Shown here: one piece after another, positions 15,967 to 21,935 of the stretch
Layout of the letters: each line of letters begins with the position of its first letter
Position numbering within the stretch: position 1 is the stretch's first letter
Notes under the pieces: model-generated
Databases searched by the model: none
The model's input: only the letters and a program-made list of their open reading frames with translations
What the model was told of the DNA's origin: nothing
Program-made: the position numbers and the translations under genes
Origin: a virus
DNA length: 34,947 nucleotides
Direction: 5' to 3' (one strand)
UHGV virus genome: UHGV-0108399

Positions 15967-16481
15967 GCATAAGAGAGCTAAATCTCACCAAAGAACAGCA
16001 CGAGTGGCTGAATGGCTGGCTTGAACTGTGGGGCGCATGGGTTTATTCAGGTCGTCTGGAAAAGCGCATGAGCAGCGTAATAGCGAAGTTCATGGAGAGC
16101 GTAGAGCCGGGAAGAGTTATGACAAGGCCAATGTGTAATGATGATGATGGAATGTTGATTTCTCAGGTCGTCGATTCCGTCATGTACATTGACAAGAAAG
16201 CCTTTGGCATCCTCCTCAGCTACTACGCTCATGGTTCATCTAAGCGAGCAATTGCATCCTACTATCACGCGACTGCAAAGCCACGCAAGATGTGTGGACG
16301 TGGTGGCGATGGATGGAGAAAACCTTCACTGGCAACCTGTAGAAACGAAATTGACGACATCCTGAAAGCGTCGTTATTTGTTTTGTACCAACCAATGCAA
16401 AATGCTTTCAAAATGCGTAAACGTGTTGAGAAAGTTAAGCATGTTGCTGTTAAGAGCCTTGACATGCAATTATCCATTTAG
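15963..16481 (+). CDS. Q: Late-gene antiterminator Q (non-lambda type)
   Basis: 172 aa; between ninH and the late promoter and lysis cassette; resembles the Phage_antitermQ family by memory. Confidence 0.65.
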   Translation: MSIRELNLTKEQHEWLNGWLELWGAWVYSGRLEKRMSSVIAKFMESVEPGRVMTRPMCNDDDGMLISQVVDSVMYIDKKAFGILLSYYAHGSSKRAIASYYHATAKPRKMCGRGGDGWRKPSLATCRNEIDDILKASLFVLYQPMQNAFKMRKRVEKVKHVAVKSLDMQLSI

Positions 16482-16488
16482 CCATAAT
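16459..16488 (+). promoter_or_regulatory. Late promoter pR' (-35 TTGACA 16459..16464, 18-nt spacer, -10 CATAAT 16483..16488)
   Basis: Consensus -35 hexamer overlapping the 3' end of Q; predicted start about 16495; the qut site is presumed to overlap. Confidence 0.5.
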
Positions 16489-16498
16489 TAGAAGGTAA

Positions 16499-16540
16499 GC
16501 TGCCGTTAGTGACTCTTAAGTTGCAACGGTGGCTTTTTTT
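16499..16540 (+). terminator. tR'-like intrinsic terminator (9-bp stem with two G-U pairs, followed by T7 run)
   Basis: GCTGCCGTT ... AACGGTGGC-TTTTTTT immediately downstream of the predicted pR' start, giving a short terminated late transcript unless Q-modified. Confidence 0.55.
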
Positions 16541-17078
16541 GTTTGCACAACAGGTAAGAGCATTGAACCCGCAGACCTCGCGGAATTGGTTAAAGGTGCC
16601 GCGCAGTGCTCTTATCGTTGTGGTGAATACGCAGGCTGATGCGTTAATCAGGTGAACGAGATACCCGCCGGTCCGTGATATGGCACACCGTGCCGGTCAT
16701 ATCTGCCGCGGTTAGGTTTACGAGGATTTCGTAAAGCTGGTCTAGGGTGAAGCCGTGAAAGCGGAGGAAGTAAAACGAGGCGTCGGTACACGCCTATCGT
16801 CATTAAGTCGGAGTTCAGCACCGACCGCCACAACCCAAACTGAGCCGTAGCCACTGGCTGTCCTGAATTCATCAGTGATAGTTATGCTGCGGCCTTCTAC
16901 ACATGATCTTCGTGAAAGCGGGCGGCATGAGGTTGCGCTAACAACCTCCTGCCGTTTTGCCCGTGCATATCGGTCACGAACAAATCTGATTACTAAACAC
17001 AGTAGCCTGGATTTGTTCTATCAGTAATCGACCTTATTCCTAATTAAATAGAGCAAATCCCCTTATTGGGGGTAAGAC

Positions 17079-17402
17079 ATGAAGATGCCAGAAAAACATG
17101 ACCTGTTAGCCGCCATTCTCGCGGCAAAGGAACAAGGCATCGGGGCAATCCTTGCGTTTGCAATGGCGTACCTTCGCGGCAGATATAATGGCGGTGCGTT
17201 TACAAAAACAGTAATCGACGCAACGATGTGCGCCATTATCGCCTGGTTCATTCGTGACCTTCTCGACTTCGCCGGACTAAGTAGCAATCTCGCTTATATA
17301 ACGAGCGTGTTCATCGGCTACATCGGTACTGACTCGATTGGTTCGCTTATCAAACGCTTCGCTGCTAAAAAAGCCGGAGTAGAAGATGGTGGAAATCAAT
17401 AA
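17079..17402 (+). CDS. S: Holin (lambda S, class I; dual-start S107/S105)
   Basis: 107 aa, essentially identical to lambda S as I recall it ([41 protein letters not shown]...). Confidence 0.9.
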
Positions 17403-17862
17403 TCAACGTAAGGCGTTCCTCGATATGCTGGCGTGGTCAGAGGGAACAGATAACGGACGACAGAAAACCAGAAATCACGGTTATGACGTCATTGTTGGCG
17501 GAGAGCTATTCACTGATTACTCAGATCACCCTCGCAAACTTGTCACGCTAAACCCCAAACTCAAATCAACAGCAGCCGGACGTTACCAGCTTCTTTCCCG
17601 TTGGTGGGATGCCTATCGTAAGCAGCTTGGCCTGAAAGACTTCTCTCCGAAAAGCCAGGACGCTGTGGCACTGCAACAGATTAAAGAACGTGGCGCTTTA
17701 CCGATGATTGATCGCGGTGATATTCGTCAGGCTATCGACCGTTGCAGCAATATCTGGGCTTCACTGCCTGGCGCTGGTTATGGTCAGTTCGAGCATAAGG
17801 CTGACAGCCTGATAGCAAAATTCAAAGAAGCAGGCGGAACGGTCAGAGAGATTGAGGTATGA
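17386..17862 (+). CDS. R: Endolysin (lambda R lytic transglycosylase)
   Basis: 158 aa, near-identical to lambda R ([42 protein letters not shown]...). Confidence 0.9.
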
Positions 17863-18296
17863 GCAGGGTCACCGCGATTATCTCCGCTCTGGTTATCTGC
17901 ATCATTGTCTGCCTTTCATGGGCTGTTAATCATTACCGTGATAACGCCATCGCCTACAAAGAGCAGCGCGATAAGGCCGCATCCACAATTGCTGACATGC
18001 AGAAGCGTCAACGTGATGTAGCAGAACTCGACGCCAGATACACAAAGGAGCTTGCTGATGCTAACGAGACTATCGAAAGTCTCCGTGCTGATGTTTCTGC
18101 TGGGCGTAAGCGCCTGCAAGTCGCCGCCACCTGTGCAAAGTCAACGACCGGAGCCAGCAGCATGGGCGATGGAGAAAGCCCAAGACTTACAGCAGATGCT
18201 GAACTCAATTATTACCGTCTCAGAAGTGGAATCGATAGGATAACCGCGCAGGTTAACTACCTGCAGGAGTACATCAGGACGCAATGCCTTCGATGA
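17859..18296 (+). CDS. Rz: Inner-membrane spanin Rz
   Basis: 145 aa; N-terminus identical to lambda Rz ([31 protein letters not shown]), coiled-coil central region. Confidence 0.85.
18052..18243 (+). CDS. Rz1: Outer-membrane lipoprotein spanin Rz1 (embedded in Rz, +1 frame)
   Basis: Signal peptide with lipobox (LLGVSAC) and proline-rich mature region; fully nested in Rz; true start probably the ATG at about 18058. Confidence 0.7.
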
Positions 18297-18470
18297 TAGC
18301 GATAATTTTACTCATCATCCTTCACATCTGGCTCTGTAGGCAGGATGGTGAACACTTCTGGAGTGAATCCAGATTAAACATCTCATTGCTGATGCTTGAT
18401 ATTGAGCATATGGCGCGCGGTAAGGGGCTGCGTTGAGATAAGAGCCAGTTCATTACAAATACCAGGATTT

Positions 18471-18496
18471 AGCCTCGCATTTGCGGGGCTTTTTAT
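18471..18496 (+). terminator. Terminator-like hairpin after the lysis cassette (AGCCUCGC-AUUU-GCGGGGCU followed by TTTTTATT)
   Basis: 8-bp stem including one G-U pair, followed by a T-run, about 175 nt after the Rz stop. Confidence 0.4.
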
Positions 18497-18518
18497 TCCC
18501 AACTGCATAGGTAATTTT

Positions 18519-18998
18519 ATGACCCAGCATATTGGCGTAAAACTGATTAACGCCTTTCCGATGACGAGACAGGCATATAACGATTTTCGTGGCTGGCAGC
18601 TTCCTGCCGGAGAAAACGGCGAGGACGAAGGCTATCTGGTTGAATATCTGGATGGCGGAAAACCTAACACCGATCGCTTTGATGGCTACGTTAGCTGGAG
18701 TCCAAAAGAAGTATTCGAAAAGGCTTATCGTCCGGTATCAGGACTAAGTTTCGGCCTTGCCATGGAAGCGTTAAAACAGGGCAAAAGTTTGCAGCGGGCA
18801 GGATGGAATGGGAAAGACCAGTTTGTTTATCTCGTGAAAGGGGAAAAATTAGCGTCTGCGTTGGGTTATGGCTTTGGCGAATATGTTGGCGAGTCAACTT
18901 TCAATGACACGCTTGTATTGAAAAACTCACAGAACCGCCTTGCTACATGGGTTCCATCCATTGGCGACCTGATGGCTGAAGACTGGCAAATCATTTAA
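18519..18998 (+). CDS. DUF2829-like phage protein with extra N-terminal domain (159 aa)
   Basis: C-terminal half (AMEALKQGKSLQRAGWNGKDQFVYLVKGEK ... LATWVPSIGDLMAEDWQII) resembles the DUF2829 signature. The track ORF start 18396 spans the upstream hairpin, so the internal ATG is preferred. Confidence 0.5.
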   Translation: MTQHIGVKLINAFPMTRQAYNDFRGWQLPAGENGEDEGYLVEYLDGGKPNTDRFDGYVSWSPKEVFEKAYRPVSGLSFGLAMEALKQGKSLQRAGWNGKDQFVYLVKGEKLASALGYGFGEYVGESTFNDTLVLKNSQNRLATWVPSIGDLMAEDWQII

Positions 18999-19231
18999 CC
19001 ATGTAGGCATTACAAAGCCTATCTACGGGTGGGCTTGATAATGAAACCGGAATTTATTCTGGGCAACCAGTTACGGCAGTACCGCGAAACAACCCAAGCC
19101 AGTAAGTGGGGAAATAACACTGGCAGCCACTGAAAGATGAACCTCCAGCCTTATGGCAAAAAAGATTCTTTGTGGTGGCGGACTGATGGAAAGACATCCT
19201 AATCAAGCAACCACTCCACAGGGTCATAATT

Positions 19232-19588
19232 ATGAACGACCAGCAAATCGAAAAAGAAATCGTTGAGAAAGGCAAAACGGCACCGCGCGTTACGCCCCAA
19301 TATATCGAAAGCATCATTCTTGAAGAGCATTTCTTTACTGCTTATGACGGTATTCGTGCCGCCAATATGGGCGTTGGCGATGCGTGGACAGCGCATAAAT
19401 CTACAGACCTCCTTACTTTCTGCGTACTGGTGCTGAAGAATGGCTTCACCGTCACCGGAGAGAGTGCCTGTGCAAGCCCGGAAAACTTTGATGCAGAAAT
19501 TGGTCGGAAGATTGCCCGGCAAAATGCTGTAAACAAAATCTGGATGCTCGAAGGTTACTTGCTGAAGCAGAAGCTAAGCGAACAGTAG
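19232..19588 (+). CDS. Hypothetical conserved phage protein (118 aa)
   Basis: Track ORF between the lysis cassette and terS; no confident family assignment. Confidence 0.45.
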   Translation: MNDQQIEKEIVEKGKTAPRVTPQYIESIILEEHFFTAYDGIRAANMGVGDAWTAHKSTDLLTFCVLVLKNGFTVTGESACASPENFDAEIGRKIARQNAVNKIWMLEGYLLKQKLSEQ

Positions 19589-19691
19589 TTATTACAAAAG
19601 CCATTCCTTACTGAGTGGCTTTGACAATGGCTTATACCCTACACGGGATAACTTAACTGATATCCCTTTTAACGGATAAACGGAGCCAACA

Positions 19692-19934
19692 ATGGCAGAG
19701 ATTATTCCCATGACTGAAGAACAGAAATTCCAGTTAGAGATTTACAAGCTGGTCATGAACCAGAACGCAGCAGCAGAGGAAGCATTTCAGTTCATTGGCA
19801 CTGACGAGCTGAAGCTTGAGCTATTCAAAATTCACTTCCAGTCAGGTGGCGCTAATTCAGATATCACGACCCGCACAATCGAAGCGGTGCGTAAATCGAA
19901 GGAAGCGTTAGACCTGTTCACCACCGGAGCATGA
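19692..19934 (+). CDS. Hypothetical protein (80 aa)
   Basis: Track ORF immediately upstream of terS. Confidence 0.45.
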   Translation: MAEIIPMTEEQKFQLEIYKLVMNQNAAAEEAFQFIGTDELKLELFKIHFQSGGANSDITTRTIEAVRKSKEALDLFTTGA

Positions 19935-19969
19935 TGCTCAACCTGAAATAACAACTAAGTGAGATGAAT

Positions 19970-20458
19970 ATGGCAGCACCAAAGGGCAACCGATTTTGGG
20001 AGGCCCGCAGTAGTCATGGGCGAAATCCTAAATTCGAATCGCCTGAGGCGCTGTGGGCTGCTTGTTGTGAATACTTCGAGTGGGTAGAAGCTAACCCGCT
20101 ATGGGAGATGAAGGCGTTCTCGTATCAGGGTGAAGTGATACAAGAGCCTATCGCCAAGATGCGAGCGATGACTATTACAGGCCTCACTCTGTTCATTGAT
20201 GTGACGCTTGAAACATGGCGCACATATCGCCTGCGAGAAGATTTATCTGAAGTCGTTACGCGAGCAGAGCAGGTCATCTACGACCAGAAATTCTCTGGCG
20301 CAGCCGCTGACCTTCTCAACGCTAACATCATCGCCCGTGATTTGGGCCTCAAAGAGCAGTCGCAAGTTGAAGACGTGACACCTGATAAGGGAGATCGCGA
20401 TAAGCGGCGCTCTCGTATCAAGGAGCTTTTCAACCGTGGAACTGGACGCGATTCTTGA
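19970..20458 (+). CDS. Terminase small subunit (P22 gp3-like)
   Basis: 162 aa from [29 protein letters not shown]...; immediately upstream of and overlapping terL; the track ORF begins two codons earlier (19964). Confidence 0.75.
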
Positions 20459-21935
20459 TAACCTGAGCGACGAAGAGCAAATCGAATTGCTCGAACTACT
20501 CGAAGAAGAAGAGAACTACCGGAACACACACCTGCTATATGAATTTACGCCATACAGCAAACAGCGTGAGTTCATCGACGCCGGGTATGACTATCCAGAG
20601 CGATGTTTTATGGCTGGTAACCAGCTTGGCAAGTCATTTACTGGTGCTGCTGAAGTCGCGTTTCACCTTACCGGGCGTTATCCTGGCACAAAAGGCTATC
20701 CTGCTGATGGTAAATATGGCGGTGAGTGGAAAGGTAAGCGTTTCTATGAGCCTGTTGTCTTCTGGATTGGTGGCGAGACAAACGAGACGGTAACCAAAAC
20801 GACTCAACGCATCCTGTGCGGTCGTATCGAAGAGAATGATGAGCCAGGCTACGGTTCCATACCGAAAGAGGACATCATTAGCTGGAAGAAGTCTCCTTTC
20901 TTTCCGAACCTTGTTGATCATCTTCTGGTTAAGCATCACACGGCTGATGGCGTTGAAGATGGCATTTCAATCTGCTACTTCAAGCCATACTCGCAAGGCC
21001 GCGCTCGCTGGCAGGGTGACACAATCCACGGCGTGTGGTTTGACGAAGAGCCACCATACAGCATTTATGGCGAAGGGCTTACCCGTACCAACAAATACGG
21101 GCAATTCTCAATTCTGACGTTTACCCCGCTGATGGGTATGTCTGACGTTGTTACCAAGTTCCTGAAGAATCCCAGCAAGTCGCAGAAAGTGGTCAACATG
21201 ACCATCTATGACGCTGAGCACTATACCGACGAGCAGAAAGAGCAAATCATCGCATCCTATCCTGAGCATGAGAGAGAGGCGCGTGCTCGCGGTATTCCTA
21301 CGATGGGTAGCGGTCGAATCTTCCAGATACCGGAAGAGACGATTAAGTGCCAGCCGTTCGAGTGTCCTGATCACTTCTACGTAATTGGCGGGATGGATTT
21401 CGGATGGGATCACCCGCAGGCGCAGGTTCAGCTTTGGTGGGATAAGGACGCAGACACAATCTACGTTTCACGCGTGTGGAAGGCGAAAGAAAAAACAGCC
21501 GTTCAGGCGTGGGGAGCAGTTAAATCATGGGCGCATAAAGTGCCAACCGCATGGCCTCATGACGGAAACCAGCACGAGAAGGGCGGCGGTGAGCAGCTTA
21601 AAGGGCAGTACGCGGAAGCTGGTTTTATGATGTTGCAGGAGCATGCGACATGGCCTGATGGCGGTAATGCTGTTGAGCCTGGCATCACTGAATTGCGAGA
21701 CATGATGCTCGATGGCCGCTTCAAAGTATTCAACACCTGTGAGCCATTCTTTGAGGAGTTCCGCCTCTATCACCGTGATGAAAACGGGAAGATCGTCAAG
21801 CTTAACGACGACGTTCTCTCAGCCGTTCGCTATGCATACATGATGCGCCGCTTCGCCAAAATGATGCGCGACATCAAAAAACCAAAAGAGAAAAAGATAC
21901 CAGCCCCAATCAGGCCCATCGCACGGAGAACTTAA
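20436..21935 (+). CDS. Terminase large subunit (P22 gp2-like), GTG start
   Basis: 499 aa, same length as P22 gp2; AAGGAG RBS before GTG; C-terminal nuclease-like region. Confidence 0.9.

Follow-up and report, generated by a model that had tools for sequence, protein, structure and literature searches.

The window analysed here is a stretch of 34,947 nucleotides of the virus genome UHGV-0108399. Between its Rz/Rz1 genes and the small terminase gene lie three genes, here termed A, B and C, whose ORF coordinates agree exactly with the original prediction and each of which scored far above the Pfam gathering threshold. The interval in which the three genes had been placed also holds part of a fourth conserved ORF of 50 aa. 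The features of the locus are listed in Table 1.

Table 1 Features of the window from Rz to terL.
Feature	Position	Strand	Basis or remark
Rz	17859-18296		ORF list
Rz1	18052-18243		embedded in Rz; ORF list
50-aa ORF, equivalent of Sf6 gene 65	18284..18436	+	ORF list; phrog_11822
Gene A cassette, 559 bp	18449..19007	+	indel relative to Sf6
Intrinsic-terminator-like hairpin with T-run	18471..18500	+	fold energy; present in Huey and Kapi1
Gene A, 159 aa, begins MTQHIGVKLINAF	18519..18998	+	ORF; PF11195
Gene A N-terminal domain, aa 1-74	18519..18740	+	uncharacterised conserved beta/alpha module
Gene A C-terminal Tad2 (DUF2829) domain, aa 75-159, with stop codon	18741..18998	+	
Near-invariant spacer	18999..19231	+	alignment of the window, Sf6, Huey and Kapi1
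Gene B, 118 aa, Acb4 family	19232..19588	+	PF13876
Gene C, 80 aa, DUF2560	19692..19934	+	PF10834
terS	19964-20458		ORF list
terL	20436-21935		ORF list

Gene A had been described as a DUF2829-like C-terminal domain joined to a distinct N-terminal domain, and this division was found both in the domain search, in which PF11195 matched residues 77-159 only (78.3 bits, cutoff 25; profile positions 2-73 of 73 covered), and in the AlphaFold2 model (pLDDT 92.4), which consists of two separate folded units. The C-terminal unit shows the Tad2 fold, with an N-terminal helix, an antiparallel sheet and the short helices alpha2 and alpha3, and among PDB sequences it aligned without gaps to the crystallised SPO1 Tad2 (E 4.8e-25) and also matched ModTad2 and HgmTad2. 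Clades with a specificity for His-ADPR or N7-cADPR exist within the Tad2 family. DUF2829 is Tad2, an experimentally established anti-defence family, and the ligand residues of its prototype SPO1 gp34.65 (Thoeris anti-defence 2; PDB 8SME/8SMF/8SMG) are W25, N26, W73, S76 and D79 (bioRxiv 10.1101/2023.05.01.538930). These correspond to W96, N97, W144, S147 and D150 of gene A and show little or no variation among 113 full-length homologues, whereas the SPO1 residues making adenine and water-network contacts (T78, H71, D67, T65 and I63) are not conserved and are replaced by G149, A142, Q138, N136 and L134. The Tad2 allele of gene A belongs to a minority subclade, the exchange of T78 to G being found in 17 of the 113 homologues; further differences from SPO1 Tad2 are the exchange of F44 to L and the additional 74-aa N-terminal domain. 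The genomic setting differs as well, since gene A is a late-operon gene of a temperate Gram-negative podovirus and SPO1 is a virulent Bacillus myovirus. The Tad2 domain of gene A is most likely tetrameric, by analogy to other Tad2 proteins, and would most likely sequester the ADP-ribose-derived messenger of a Thoeris TIR protein, most probably 3'cADPR/2'cADPR, so that the Thoeris effector would never be activated. Because the secondary contacts differ from those of SPO1, the ligand could also be His-ADPR, N7-cADPR or another molecule.

The N-terminal domain of gene A (residues 1-74) had no match in Pfam, not even at E<=10 when ten N-domain sequences were searched, nor in NCBIfam or PADLOC, and a comparison with PDB sequences returned noise only. 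A prediction of this domain alone yielded a strand-helix-strand-strand-helix arrangement in which residues 1-9 are unpacked. The family comprises at least 425 clusters (50% identity, E<=1e-30), and conservation reaches 90% or more at about 33 of the 74 positions, many of which hold polar or aromatic residues of the surface type (R17, Y20, N21, R24, W26, E32, D36, E42, D45, N50, Y57 and W60). The domain is net acidic, whereas the pockets of typical nucleotide sponges are positively charged. It was found either alone, in versions of 73-78 aa, or in fusions with at least five sponge families: among the 145 best 50%-identity cluster representatives carrying it, 82 contain Tad2, 31 Sequestin, 11 Acb4, one Acb2/Tad1 and one RyR. 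N-terminal, C-terminal and internal positions of the domain all occur, as do three-domain chains. Between the window, Huey and Kapi1, the domain is 96-100% identical, while the attached Tad2 domains share just 46-63% identity; that the N-terminal domain stays constant while its Tad2 partner is exchanged suggests ongoing selection on ligand specificity.

Fusion between sponge domains is an established pattern and was the route to the discovery of Sequestin (bioRxiv 10.1101/2025.07.12.664507). Examples are Acb4-Tad2 in Pasteurella phage Pm86 and Acb4-Sequestin in Pseudomonas phage Ab09, arranged as 'beads on a string'. The distribution of the N-terminal domain resembles that of Sequestin (PF21825), a small autonomous anti-signalling domain that occurs alone or fused to Tad2 or Acb4. 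The domain is not itself a Sequestin, since PF21825 did not match at E<=10 and the model is of the beta/alpha type rather than all-helical. We infer that it represents a separate, self-sufficient module and most likely a further anti-signalling unit, which would bind a ligand or a protein. It is quite possible, and we put this forward tentatively, that it founds a new anti-signalling family, i.e. a sponge or inhibitor of an immune signal or component beyond the targets of the known sponges (Tad1, Tad2, Acb2, Acb4, Sequestin, Lockin, TadIV-1 and RyR Tad). If so, the domain would be more conserved than its partners because its target is invariant, gene A would act as a two-pronged inhibitor, and the domain would mark anti-defence loci in phages of Proteobacteria, crAss-like phages and others.

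A simpler role, in which the N-terminal domain is a mere dimerisation or scaffold module that joins or stabilises sponge oligomers and gene A is simply a Tad2, appears somewhat doubtful. It derives from RyR Tad (gp68 of Pectobacterium phage vB_PatP_CB1), which carries a homologous domain of about 70 aa likewise located upstream of a gcADPR sponge. The homology is supported by BLASTP against gp68 residues 1-70 (34% identity over 67 aa, E 7e-6) and by hhalign (probability 96.2%, E 2.2e-9). As crystallised, RyR Tad shows this domain as a domain-swapped dimer; in the only experiment on a relative of the gene A domain, gp68 residues 1-86 had no activity against Thoeris I, and the C-terminal domain alone was sufficient (bioRxiv 10.64898/2026.06.04.730250); the unpacked residues 1-9 in the model of the gene A domain would fit a swapped first strand. 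The gp68 domain, however, lacks the near-invariant RGW and DGGKPN motifs, so that its negative result may not transfer, and it is paired with an all-helical RyR Repeat12-like domain instead of a Tad2. The activity of the isolated RyR Tad C-terminal domain also argues against a scaffold, since the N-terminal domain is then not required for the function of its partner. The same holds for the differing oligomeric states (dimer, tetramer, hexamer) and domain orders of the partners, for a degree of conservation that exceeds what a scaffold usually needs, and for the stand-alone 73-aa versions, which are common in phage contigs; no sponge gene was found adjoining these stand-alone genes, which instead lie in RNR/glutaredoxin/PhoH contexts or at the start of an operon. 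That the domain is a protein-binding inhibitor, directed against a TIR protein, an effector or another host factor rather than acting as a small-molecule sponge, is unlikely.

Gene B matched PF13876 along the complete profile (118.6 bits, cutoff 27, E 1.7e-34; residues 20-115 correspond to profile positions 1-82 of 82). PF13876 is the Acb4 anti-CBASS family according to Chang et al., who found that 8 of 8 tested homologues bound 3'3'-cGAMP and that homologues from Gram-negative phages also bind 3'3'-cAA (bioRxiv 10.1101/2024.12.30.630793). From the latter, the specificity of gene B probably differs from that of SPO1 Acb4. Against the SPO1 Acb4 crystal chain (PDB 9E4W), the match reached E 0.006 over just 43 residues (aa 61-103), with the core beta-strands and helix alpha4 being aligned. 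F48, F62 and I66, which are stacking or hydrophobic residues, are conserved together with G52, G67 and R68. Of the SPO1 Acb4 contact residues, E49 is replaced by T, Y57 by A and T70 by I; V56 is replaced by C. The N-terminal region of gene B is longer than that of SPO1 Acb4 and, compared with Sf6 gp66, represents an exchanged allele. Gene B is thus a mosaic allele: identity to Sf6 and Huey is complete over aa 61-118, aa 20-60 are divergent, and aa 1-19 match both phages again, except for G3 of Sf6 and V20I. Judging from the tested homologues, the protein is most likely a tetramer that would sequester CBASS cyclic dinucleotides of the 3'3'-cGAMP/cUA/cAA type.

A counterpart of the gene pair is found in phage N4 (EF056009 numbering). 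N4 gp49 (160 aa) likewise consists of the N-terminal domain and a Tad2 domain and is 45% identical to gene A over the full length, although its Tad2 insertion differs. The adjoining gp48 belongs to PF13876/Acb4 and is 44% identical to gene B, the family of which is also labelled N4 gp49/Sf6 gp66. The N4 acb4 gene has been reported to trigger Panoptes (bioRxiv 10.64898/2026.06.04.730250). The gene order in N4 is reversed relative to the window, and the setting differs from the interval studied here, since the N4 genes adjoin the virion RNA polymerase in the 'anti-signalling hotspot' of N4-like phages.

Gene C is of a different kind. It matched PF10834 (DUF2560) over its full length (147.7 bits, cutoff 25, E 1.1e-43), and its equivalents P22 ORF80, HK620 hkbM and Sf6 gp67 are located directly upstream of terS, a position that is kept in these phages and many others whatever the type of terS. 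Its relatives fall into 93 clusters, in which most matches are unnamed metagenome sequences and all organism-named matches are from Enterobacterales. PF10834 is the sole Pfam domain on all of these matches apart from the weakest, which has none. A hidden sponge was considered for gene C and rejected, given the absence of fusions and of Pfam cross-matches among the 93 clusters and the PDB comparison at noise level. Gene C is a conserved, lineage-restricted gene and not cargo, and it forms the right frame of the slot. The left frame, outside the sponge cassettes, is the 50-aa ORF, which overlaps the stop codon of Rz, has a hydrophobic N-terminus and matched phrog_11822 over its full length (E 7.8e-37), in the same position as Sf6 gene 65. 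No match to it was obtained in Pfam, NCBIfam or PADLOC; its counterpart Kapi1_042 is annotated with a signal peptide.

The interval between these two frames is variable, as had been proposed for a cargo site: relatives carry Tad2 together with Acb4, Acb4 only, Tad2 only, or Rha, KilA-N or GIY-YIG genes. P22 and HK620 harbor neither A nor B and have Rha or KilA-N genes in the slot, and GIY-YIG is found in other relatives. The alignment with Sf6 extends to position 18448 and resumes at 19008, i.e. Sf6 lacks exactly the gene A cassette, which comprises the hairpin, gene A and 9 nt and is carried by Huey and Kapi1. Kapi1 in turn lacks gene B, from about 19200 to 19620. Judged by these sequence borders, the slot is mosaic, with A and B as independent cassettes. 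The three genes had been taken together as a trio, which does not hold up as a functional unit: A and B are found independently of each other, in separate cassettes, and C is a fixed gene. Homologues of A and B are also present at other positions in unrelated phages, namely N4-like, Vibrio, Pseudomonas, Ralstonia, crAss-like and Bacillus phages, and part of the A+B region was matched in 1368 of 5426 complete E. coli genomes. The spacer between the two genes is nearly invariant between the window, Sf6, Huey and Kapi1 despite differing flanking genes (fold z -2.46) and is likely a recombination joint. An Rfam search of positions 18200-20000 matched nothing.

The terminator-like hairpin noted upstream of gene A could be substantiated. 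Its arms at 18471-18490 (AGCCTCGC-ATTT-GCGGGGCT) form 8 pairs, 6 of them G-C, around a 4-nt loop, followed by the tail TTTTTATT. The folding energy is -16.4 kcal/mol (z = -3.8), and none of 200 shuffled sequences folded as well. The start codon of gene A is located 18 nt downstream of the hairpin and T-run, and a consensus scan from the hairpin to this codon revealed no promoter-like site. The hairpin is present in Huey and Kapi1 and absent from Sf6; by this distribution it is part of the gene A cassette and does not belong to the gene upstream. Both genes would be expressed on the Q-antiterminated late transcript, via read-through of the hairpin before A, and would then shield the late development of the phage itself following induction or infection.

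Taken together, we regard it as highly probable that the slot is a hot-spot holding a Tad2-type gene A and an Acb4-type gene B as anti-signalling cassettes. This explanation draws on what was observed here: the family memberships and the fold, the conservation of core ligand residues, the borders of the cassettes and the statistics of the fusions. On this view, recombination would be concentrated in the Rz-terS interval, where the lysis cassette of a P22-like (Lederbergvirus) prophage has its distal end within the late operon; the gene-65-like ORF and DUF2560/ORF80 frame this hot-spot, and the two cassettes would have been acquired into it independently. A and B are new members of known sponge families, to which gene A adds one uncharacterised domain. 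The candidacy for anti-defence functions, which had been extended to all three genes, is thus strengthened for A and B as members of established families and falls away for gene C, since DUF2560 has no link to defence; likewise, the label of unknown function is outdated at the family level for the C-terminal domain of gene A and for gene B. A point against the anti-signalling explanation is that A and B lie in a late operon behind a terminator, whereas the known sponges are considered most effective when produced early.

It is very unlikely that the genes represent a co-adapted lysis or DNA packaging unit with core late-operon functions. Their late-operon location, flanked by the lysis cassette and terS, and the conserved position of gene C in P22, HK620, Sf6 and many others would agree with such a unit, but viable close relatives lack A (Sf6), B (Kapi1) or both (P22, HK620), and homologues of A and B are found in unrelated phages elsewhere in the genome. 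The three are therefore not all core structural or packaging genes; for gene C alone, a role in lysis or packaging is possible. Neither E. coli nor Salmonella is known to have type II-A CRISPR-Cas9, and the only solved relative found for gene B is Acb4. An anti-CRISPR function of A (and B), as suggested by the label 'anti-CRISPR protein' of Huey CDS0064 and CDS0066, by the initial link of DUF2829 to AcrIIA7 and by the deposition of chains 8kbi and 9kzr under Acr names, is extremely unlikely, since the Cas9 inhibition by AcrIIA7/HgmTad2 and other Tad2 homologues was not reproducible for Li et al., who identified AcrIIA7/HgmTad2 as a gcADPR/CDN sponge (bioRxiv 10.1101/2023.11.15.567273), in agreement with Yirmiya et al.

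From the anti-signalling explanation it follows that two 'hypothetical' genes that are common in P22-like prophages of E. coli, Shigella and Salmonella become predicted anti-Thoeris and anti-CBASS sponges. The Rz-terS slot, as an anti-defence hot-spot whose cassette borders are precisely defined, would help to find further counter-defence genes in Lederbergvirus genomes, and the unannotated, very conserved 74-aa domain, which occurs alongside five sponge families, is a candidate for 'guilt by fusion', as was Sequestin.

The window represents a P22-like (Lederbergvirus) prophage, whose nearest phage records are HZ41, IME10, Huey, Kapi1 and Sf6, and in which an integrase at the left end is followed by an early region, a Q-like gene, a lysis cassette, terS, terL, the portal gene and the head and ejection genes. 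Three genes, here termed A, B and C, lie between Rz/Rz1 and terS. The coordinates and the gene A N-terminal sequence given in the original prediction proved exact in an ORF check, and the terminator-like hairpin proposed ahead of gene A is real, with 8 pairs (6 of them G-C), a T-run and a stability of -16.4 kcal/mol (z = -3.8), which was reached by 0 of 200 shuffled sequences. No tRNA genes were found between the Q-like gene and the holin gene (16400-17100); the equivalent position in Sf6 and Kapi1 carries tRNA-Asn and tRNA-Thr.

Features of the lysis cassette and the Rz-terS interval (window positions).
Feature	Position	Strand	Remark
Holin	17079-17402		lysis cassette
Endolysin	17386-17862		lysis cassette
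Rz	17859-18296		stop codon 18294-18296
Rz1	18052-18243		embedded in Rz
50-aa ORF	18284-18436	+	ATG at 18284; overlaps Rz stop codon
Hairpin with T-run	18471-18500	+	
Gene A	18519-18998	+	159 aa
Spacer between genes A and B	18999-19231		233 bp
Gene B	19232-19588	+	118 aa
Gene C	19692-19934	+	80 aa
terS	19964-20458	+	PF16677

Cassette borders were derived from a four-way alignment of the window, Sf6, Huey and Kapi1. Sf6 lacks exactly 18449-19007 (559 bp, comprising the hairpin, gene A and 9 nt) and Kapi1 carries gene A without gene B (about 19200-19620), so that A, B and C do not form the single trio that had been proposed. The same slot harbors Rha/ORF201 in P22 and Sf101, KilA-N and hkbL in HK620, and a GIY-YIG nuclease in epsilon34 and g341c, which agrees with its earlier description as a site of variable cargo. 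From this we conclude that the Rz-terS interval is a recombination hot-spot with A and B as separate cassettes. The spacer separating the two genes has hardly changed among the four phages, even where a neighbouring gene is different or missing. A 9-bp hairpin (AAGCCTATC/GGTGGGCTT) lacking a T-run stands at its start; the spacer shows an RNA fold z of -2.46, has no match in Rfam and may serve as a joint for recombination or have a regulatory role. A 37-aa ORF is annotated in the spacer of Huey (window 19153-19266). Of 5426 complete E. coli genomes, 1368 match the A+B region in some part and 13 have the full pair, under the annotation 'DUF2829 domain-containing protein | Gp49 family protein'.

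The variable slot is framed by the 50-aa ORF and gene C. The former is equivalent to Sf6 gene 65 (phrog_11822 over the full length, 7.8e-37) and has a hydrophobic N-terminus, its Kapi1 homologue being annotated with a signal peptide. Gene C belongs to DUF2560 (1.1e-43), and its counterparts P22 ORF80, HK620 hkbM and Sf6 gp67 are always located directly upstream of terS, regardless of the terS type. The family is small (93 clusters, identity of at least 59%); its organism-named members are all from Enterobacterales, most members being unnamed metagenome sequences, and apart from the weakest member, which has no Pfam domain, all carry PF10834 and no other. A PDB search with gene C gave noise-level matches only, and neither the 93 family clusters nor the Pfam domains nor the PDB revealed a link to defence. 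Gene C is a fixed lineage feature and not cargo. The observation behind the original prediction is confirmed and its interpretation supported in part: an anti-defence candidacy is backed for A and B, not for C, and at family level the label of unknown function no longer applies to the C-domain of A or to gene B, which fall into characterised sponge families, i.e. phage proteins sequestering bacterial immune signals.

As had been proposed, gene A joins a DUF2829-like C-domain, identified by family membership and predicted fold as Tad2 (PF11195, anti-Thoeris), to a distinct N-terminal domain (N-domain, residues 1-74), which also exists as stand-alone proteins of 73-78 aa. The Tad2 of SPO1 is a homotetramer sequestering 1''-3' gcADPR, which it contacts mainly through W25, N26, W73 and D79, with T78, I63, T65, D67, H71 and S76 as further contacts or water ligands (Yirmiya et al., bioRxiv 10.1101/2023.05.01.538930). 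In an ungapped alignment, the ligand residues kept in gene A are W96, N97, W144, D150 and S147, and the altered contact positions are G149, L134, N136, Q138 and A142. W96 and W144 are invariant across 113 full-length homologues, and N97, S147 and D150 are each conserved in at least 110 of them. The allele of the window falls within a minority 'WVPSxGD' subclade, T78 being changed to G in 17 of the 113. Certain Tad2 clades bind His-ADPR (type II Thoeris), one branch reportedly inhibits type IV Thoeris (signal N7-cADPR) and Tad2s with a long insertion additionally bind cyclic dinucleotides; a second pocket of the latter type is unlikely here, because the insertion is of the short SPO1 type (GYGFGEY vs GFGFGEY in SPO1). 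We infer from sequence that the C-domain is a putative sponge for a TIR signal, with 3'cADPR/2'cADPR as the likeliest ligand and another specificity being possible.

The Tad2 domains of the window, Huey and Kapi1 (lengths 85, 92 and 99 aa) are 46-63% identical at the protein level and the N-domains 96-100%, from which we conclude that Tad2 alleles were swapped behind a constant N-domain. The central Tad2 part (window 18741-18995) is a separate allele in each phage, and the N-domain coding part and the final ~30 nt of gene A are nearly identical. P0277 (354 aa) is a metagenomic N-domain-Tad2 protein in which ~200 inserted residues, matching HNH_3 and AP2, interrupt the Tad2 domain; the insert looks like a homing-endonuclease-like element within a sponge gene.

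Gene B matches PF13876 ('N4 Gp49/Sf6 gene 66 family', 1.7e-34), which Chang et al. equate with the anti-CBASS family Acb4. SPO1 Acb4 acts as a tetramer that sequesters 3'3'-cGAMP and related CBASS signals, 8 of 8 tested homologues bound 3'3'-cGAMP, and homologues of Gram-negative phages also bound 3'3'-cAA (Chang et al., bioRxiv 10.1101/2024.12.30.630793). The match to the Acb4 crystal chain 9e4w (E 0.006) covers residues 61-103 only; F48, F62 and I66 of Acb4 are conserved in gene B, and E49, Y57 and T70 are replaced. Relative to Sf6/Huey gp66, residues 1-19 match apart from position 3 (Sf6 only) and position 20, residues 61-118 are identical, and residues 20-60 (window 19289-19411) diverge and are 8 aa shorter, which makes gene B a mosaic allele. 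The divergent segment precedes the first core strand, the site of the K36 contact with guanine in SPO1 Acb4.

Phage N4 (EF056009) carries the A/B pair in reversed order: gp48 (PF13876/Acb4, 44% identical to gene B) and gp49, which has the N-domain-Tad2 architecture of gene A (45% identical), are adjacent at 1609-2462 and border the gene for the virion RNA polymerase, a locus described as an "anti-signalling hotspot" of N4-like phages (bioRxiv 10.64898/2026.06.04.730250). Since gp48 is the PF13876 member, the Pfam name 'N4 Gp49' refers to gp48 in this record.

The N-domain is the sole piece without an explanation from existing families. A search with the N-domain alone gave 139 clusters, and 425 clusters at E<=1e-30 were obtained when 1.84 billion representatives were searched with a profile; matches scoring more weakly than this may be Tad2-only, since the profile includes part of Tad2. 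By tblastn, the N-domain occurs in 137 phage records (Escherichia, Vibrio, Klebsiella, Pseudomonas, crAss-like, Clostridium and other hosts). Among the best 145 representatives, a ranking that favors Tad2 fusions for the same reason, it co-occurs with Tad2 (82), Sequestin (PF21825; 31), Acb4 (11) and, rarely, the Acb2/Tad1 hairpin domain (1) or a RyR domain (1). It is placed first, last or internally, and three-domain chains (N-domain-Acb4-Tad2, N-domain-Sequestin-Tad2) are also seen. Across the 113 N-domain-Tad2 proteins, mean pairwise identity is 72% for the N-domain vs 53% for Tad2, and in 89% of pairs the N-domain is the better conserved of the two. In metagenomic phage contigs (L007-L010), one phage type has the stand-alone gene between class II ribonucleotide reductase and glutaredoxin/PhoH genes, whereas in another it opens an operon, adjoining an HTH gene; no recognisable sponge genes lie beside it in these contigs.

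Sponge domains are often fused together, and Sequestin was discovered purely via its fusions to Tad2 and Acb4 (Tal et al., bioRxiv 10.1101/2025.07.12.664507); reasoning from fusions in the same way makes the N-domain a strong candidate for an anti-signalling module. We tentatively consider that it could constitute a new family of such modules, acting as sponge or inhibitor. A relative is known from RyR Tad (gp68 of Pectobacterium phage CB1), whose C-domain is a gcADPR sponge, whose N-domain forms a domain-swapped dimer in the crystal and whose residues 1-86 did not counter Thoeris I by themselves (bioRxiv 10.64898/2026.06.04.730250). BLASTP (34% identity over 67 residues, E 7e-6) and hhalign against the family profile (probability 96.2%, E 2e-9) show that the two N-domains are homologous. 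The inactivity of this relative and the net acidic character of the N-domain count against a classical nucleotide sponge; however, gp68 lacks the RGW and DGGKPN motifs, both near-invariant in the main family, to which the negative finding may therefore not extend. That the N-domain is instead a scaffold seems rather unlikely, and a protein-binding module is improbable.

By their sequences, A and B belong to sponge families that have already been characterised, and it is highly improbable that they are anti-CRISPR proteins: their Huey (PQ850609) homologues CDS0064 and CDS0066 are both labelled as such, but the label for A most likely derives from AcrIIA7 (DUF2829), whose Cas9 inhibition could not be reproduced (bioRxiv 10.1101/2023.11.15.567273).

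No promoter-like site was found between the hairpin and the gene A ATG. In the model that we propose for the two sponges, a Q-modified late transcript would read through the hairpin after induction or infection, the gene A protein would oligomerise via Tad2, possibly also via a swapped N-domain dimer, and soak up Thoeris TIR products, and gene B tetramers would soak up CBASS cyclic dinucleotides, by which effector activation would be blunted in late development. A late-operon placement is unusual for sponges and represents the weakest step. The presence-absence polymorphism of A and B may reflect a balance between a benefit on particular hosts and the cost that comes with sponge-sensing systems such as Panoptes, which N4 acb4 reportedly triggers (bioRxiv 10.64898/2026.06.04.730250). 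For the N-domain, uncharacterised yet very widespread, the fusion pattern provides a specific, testable prediction.
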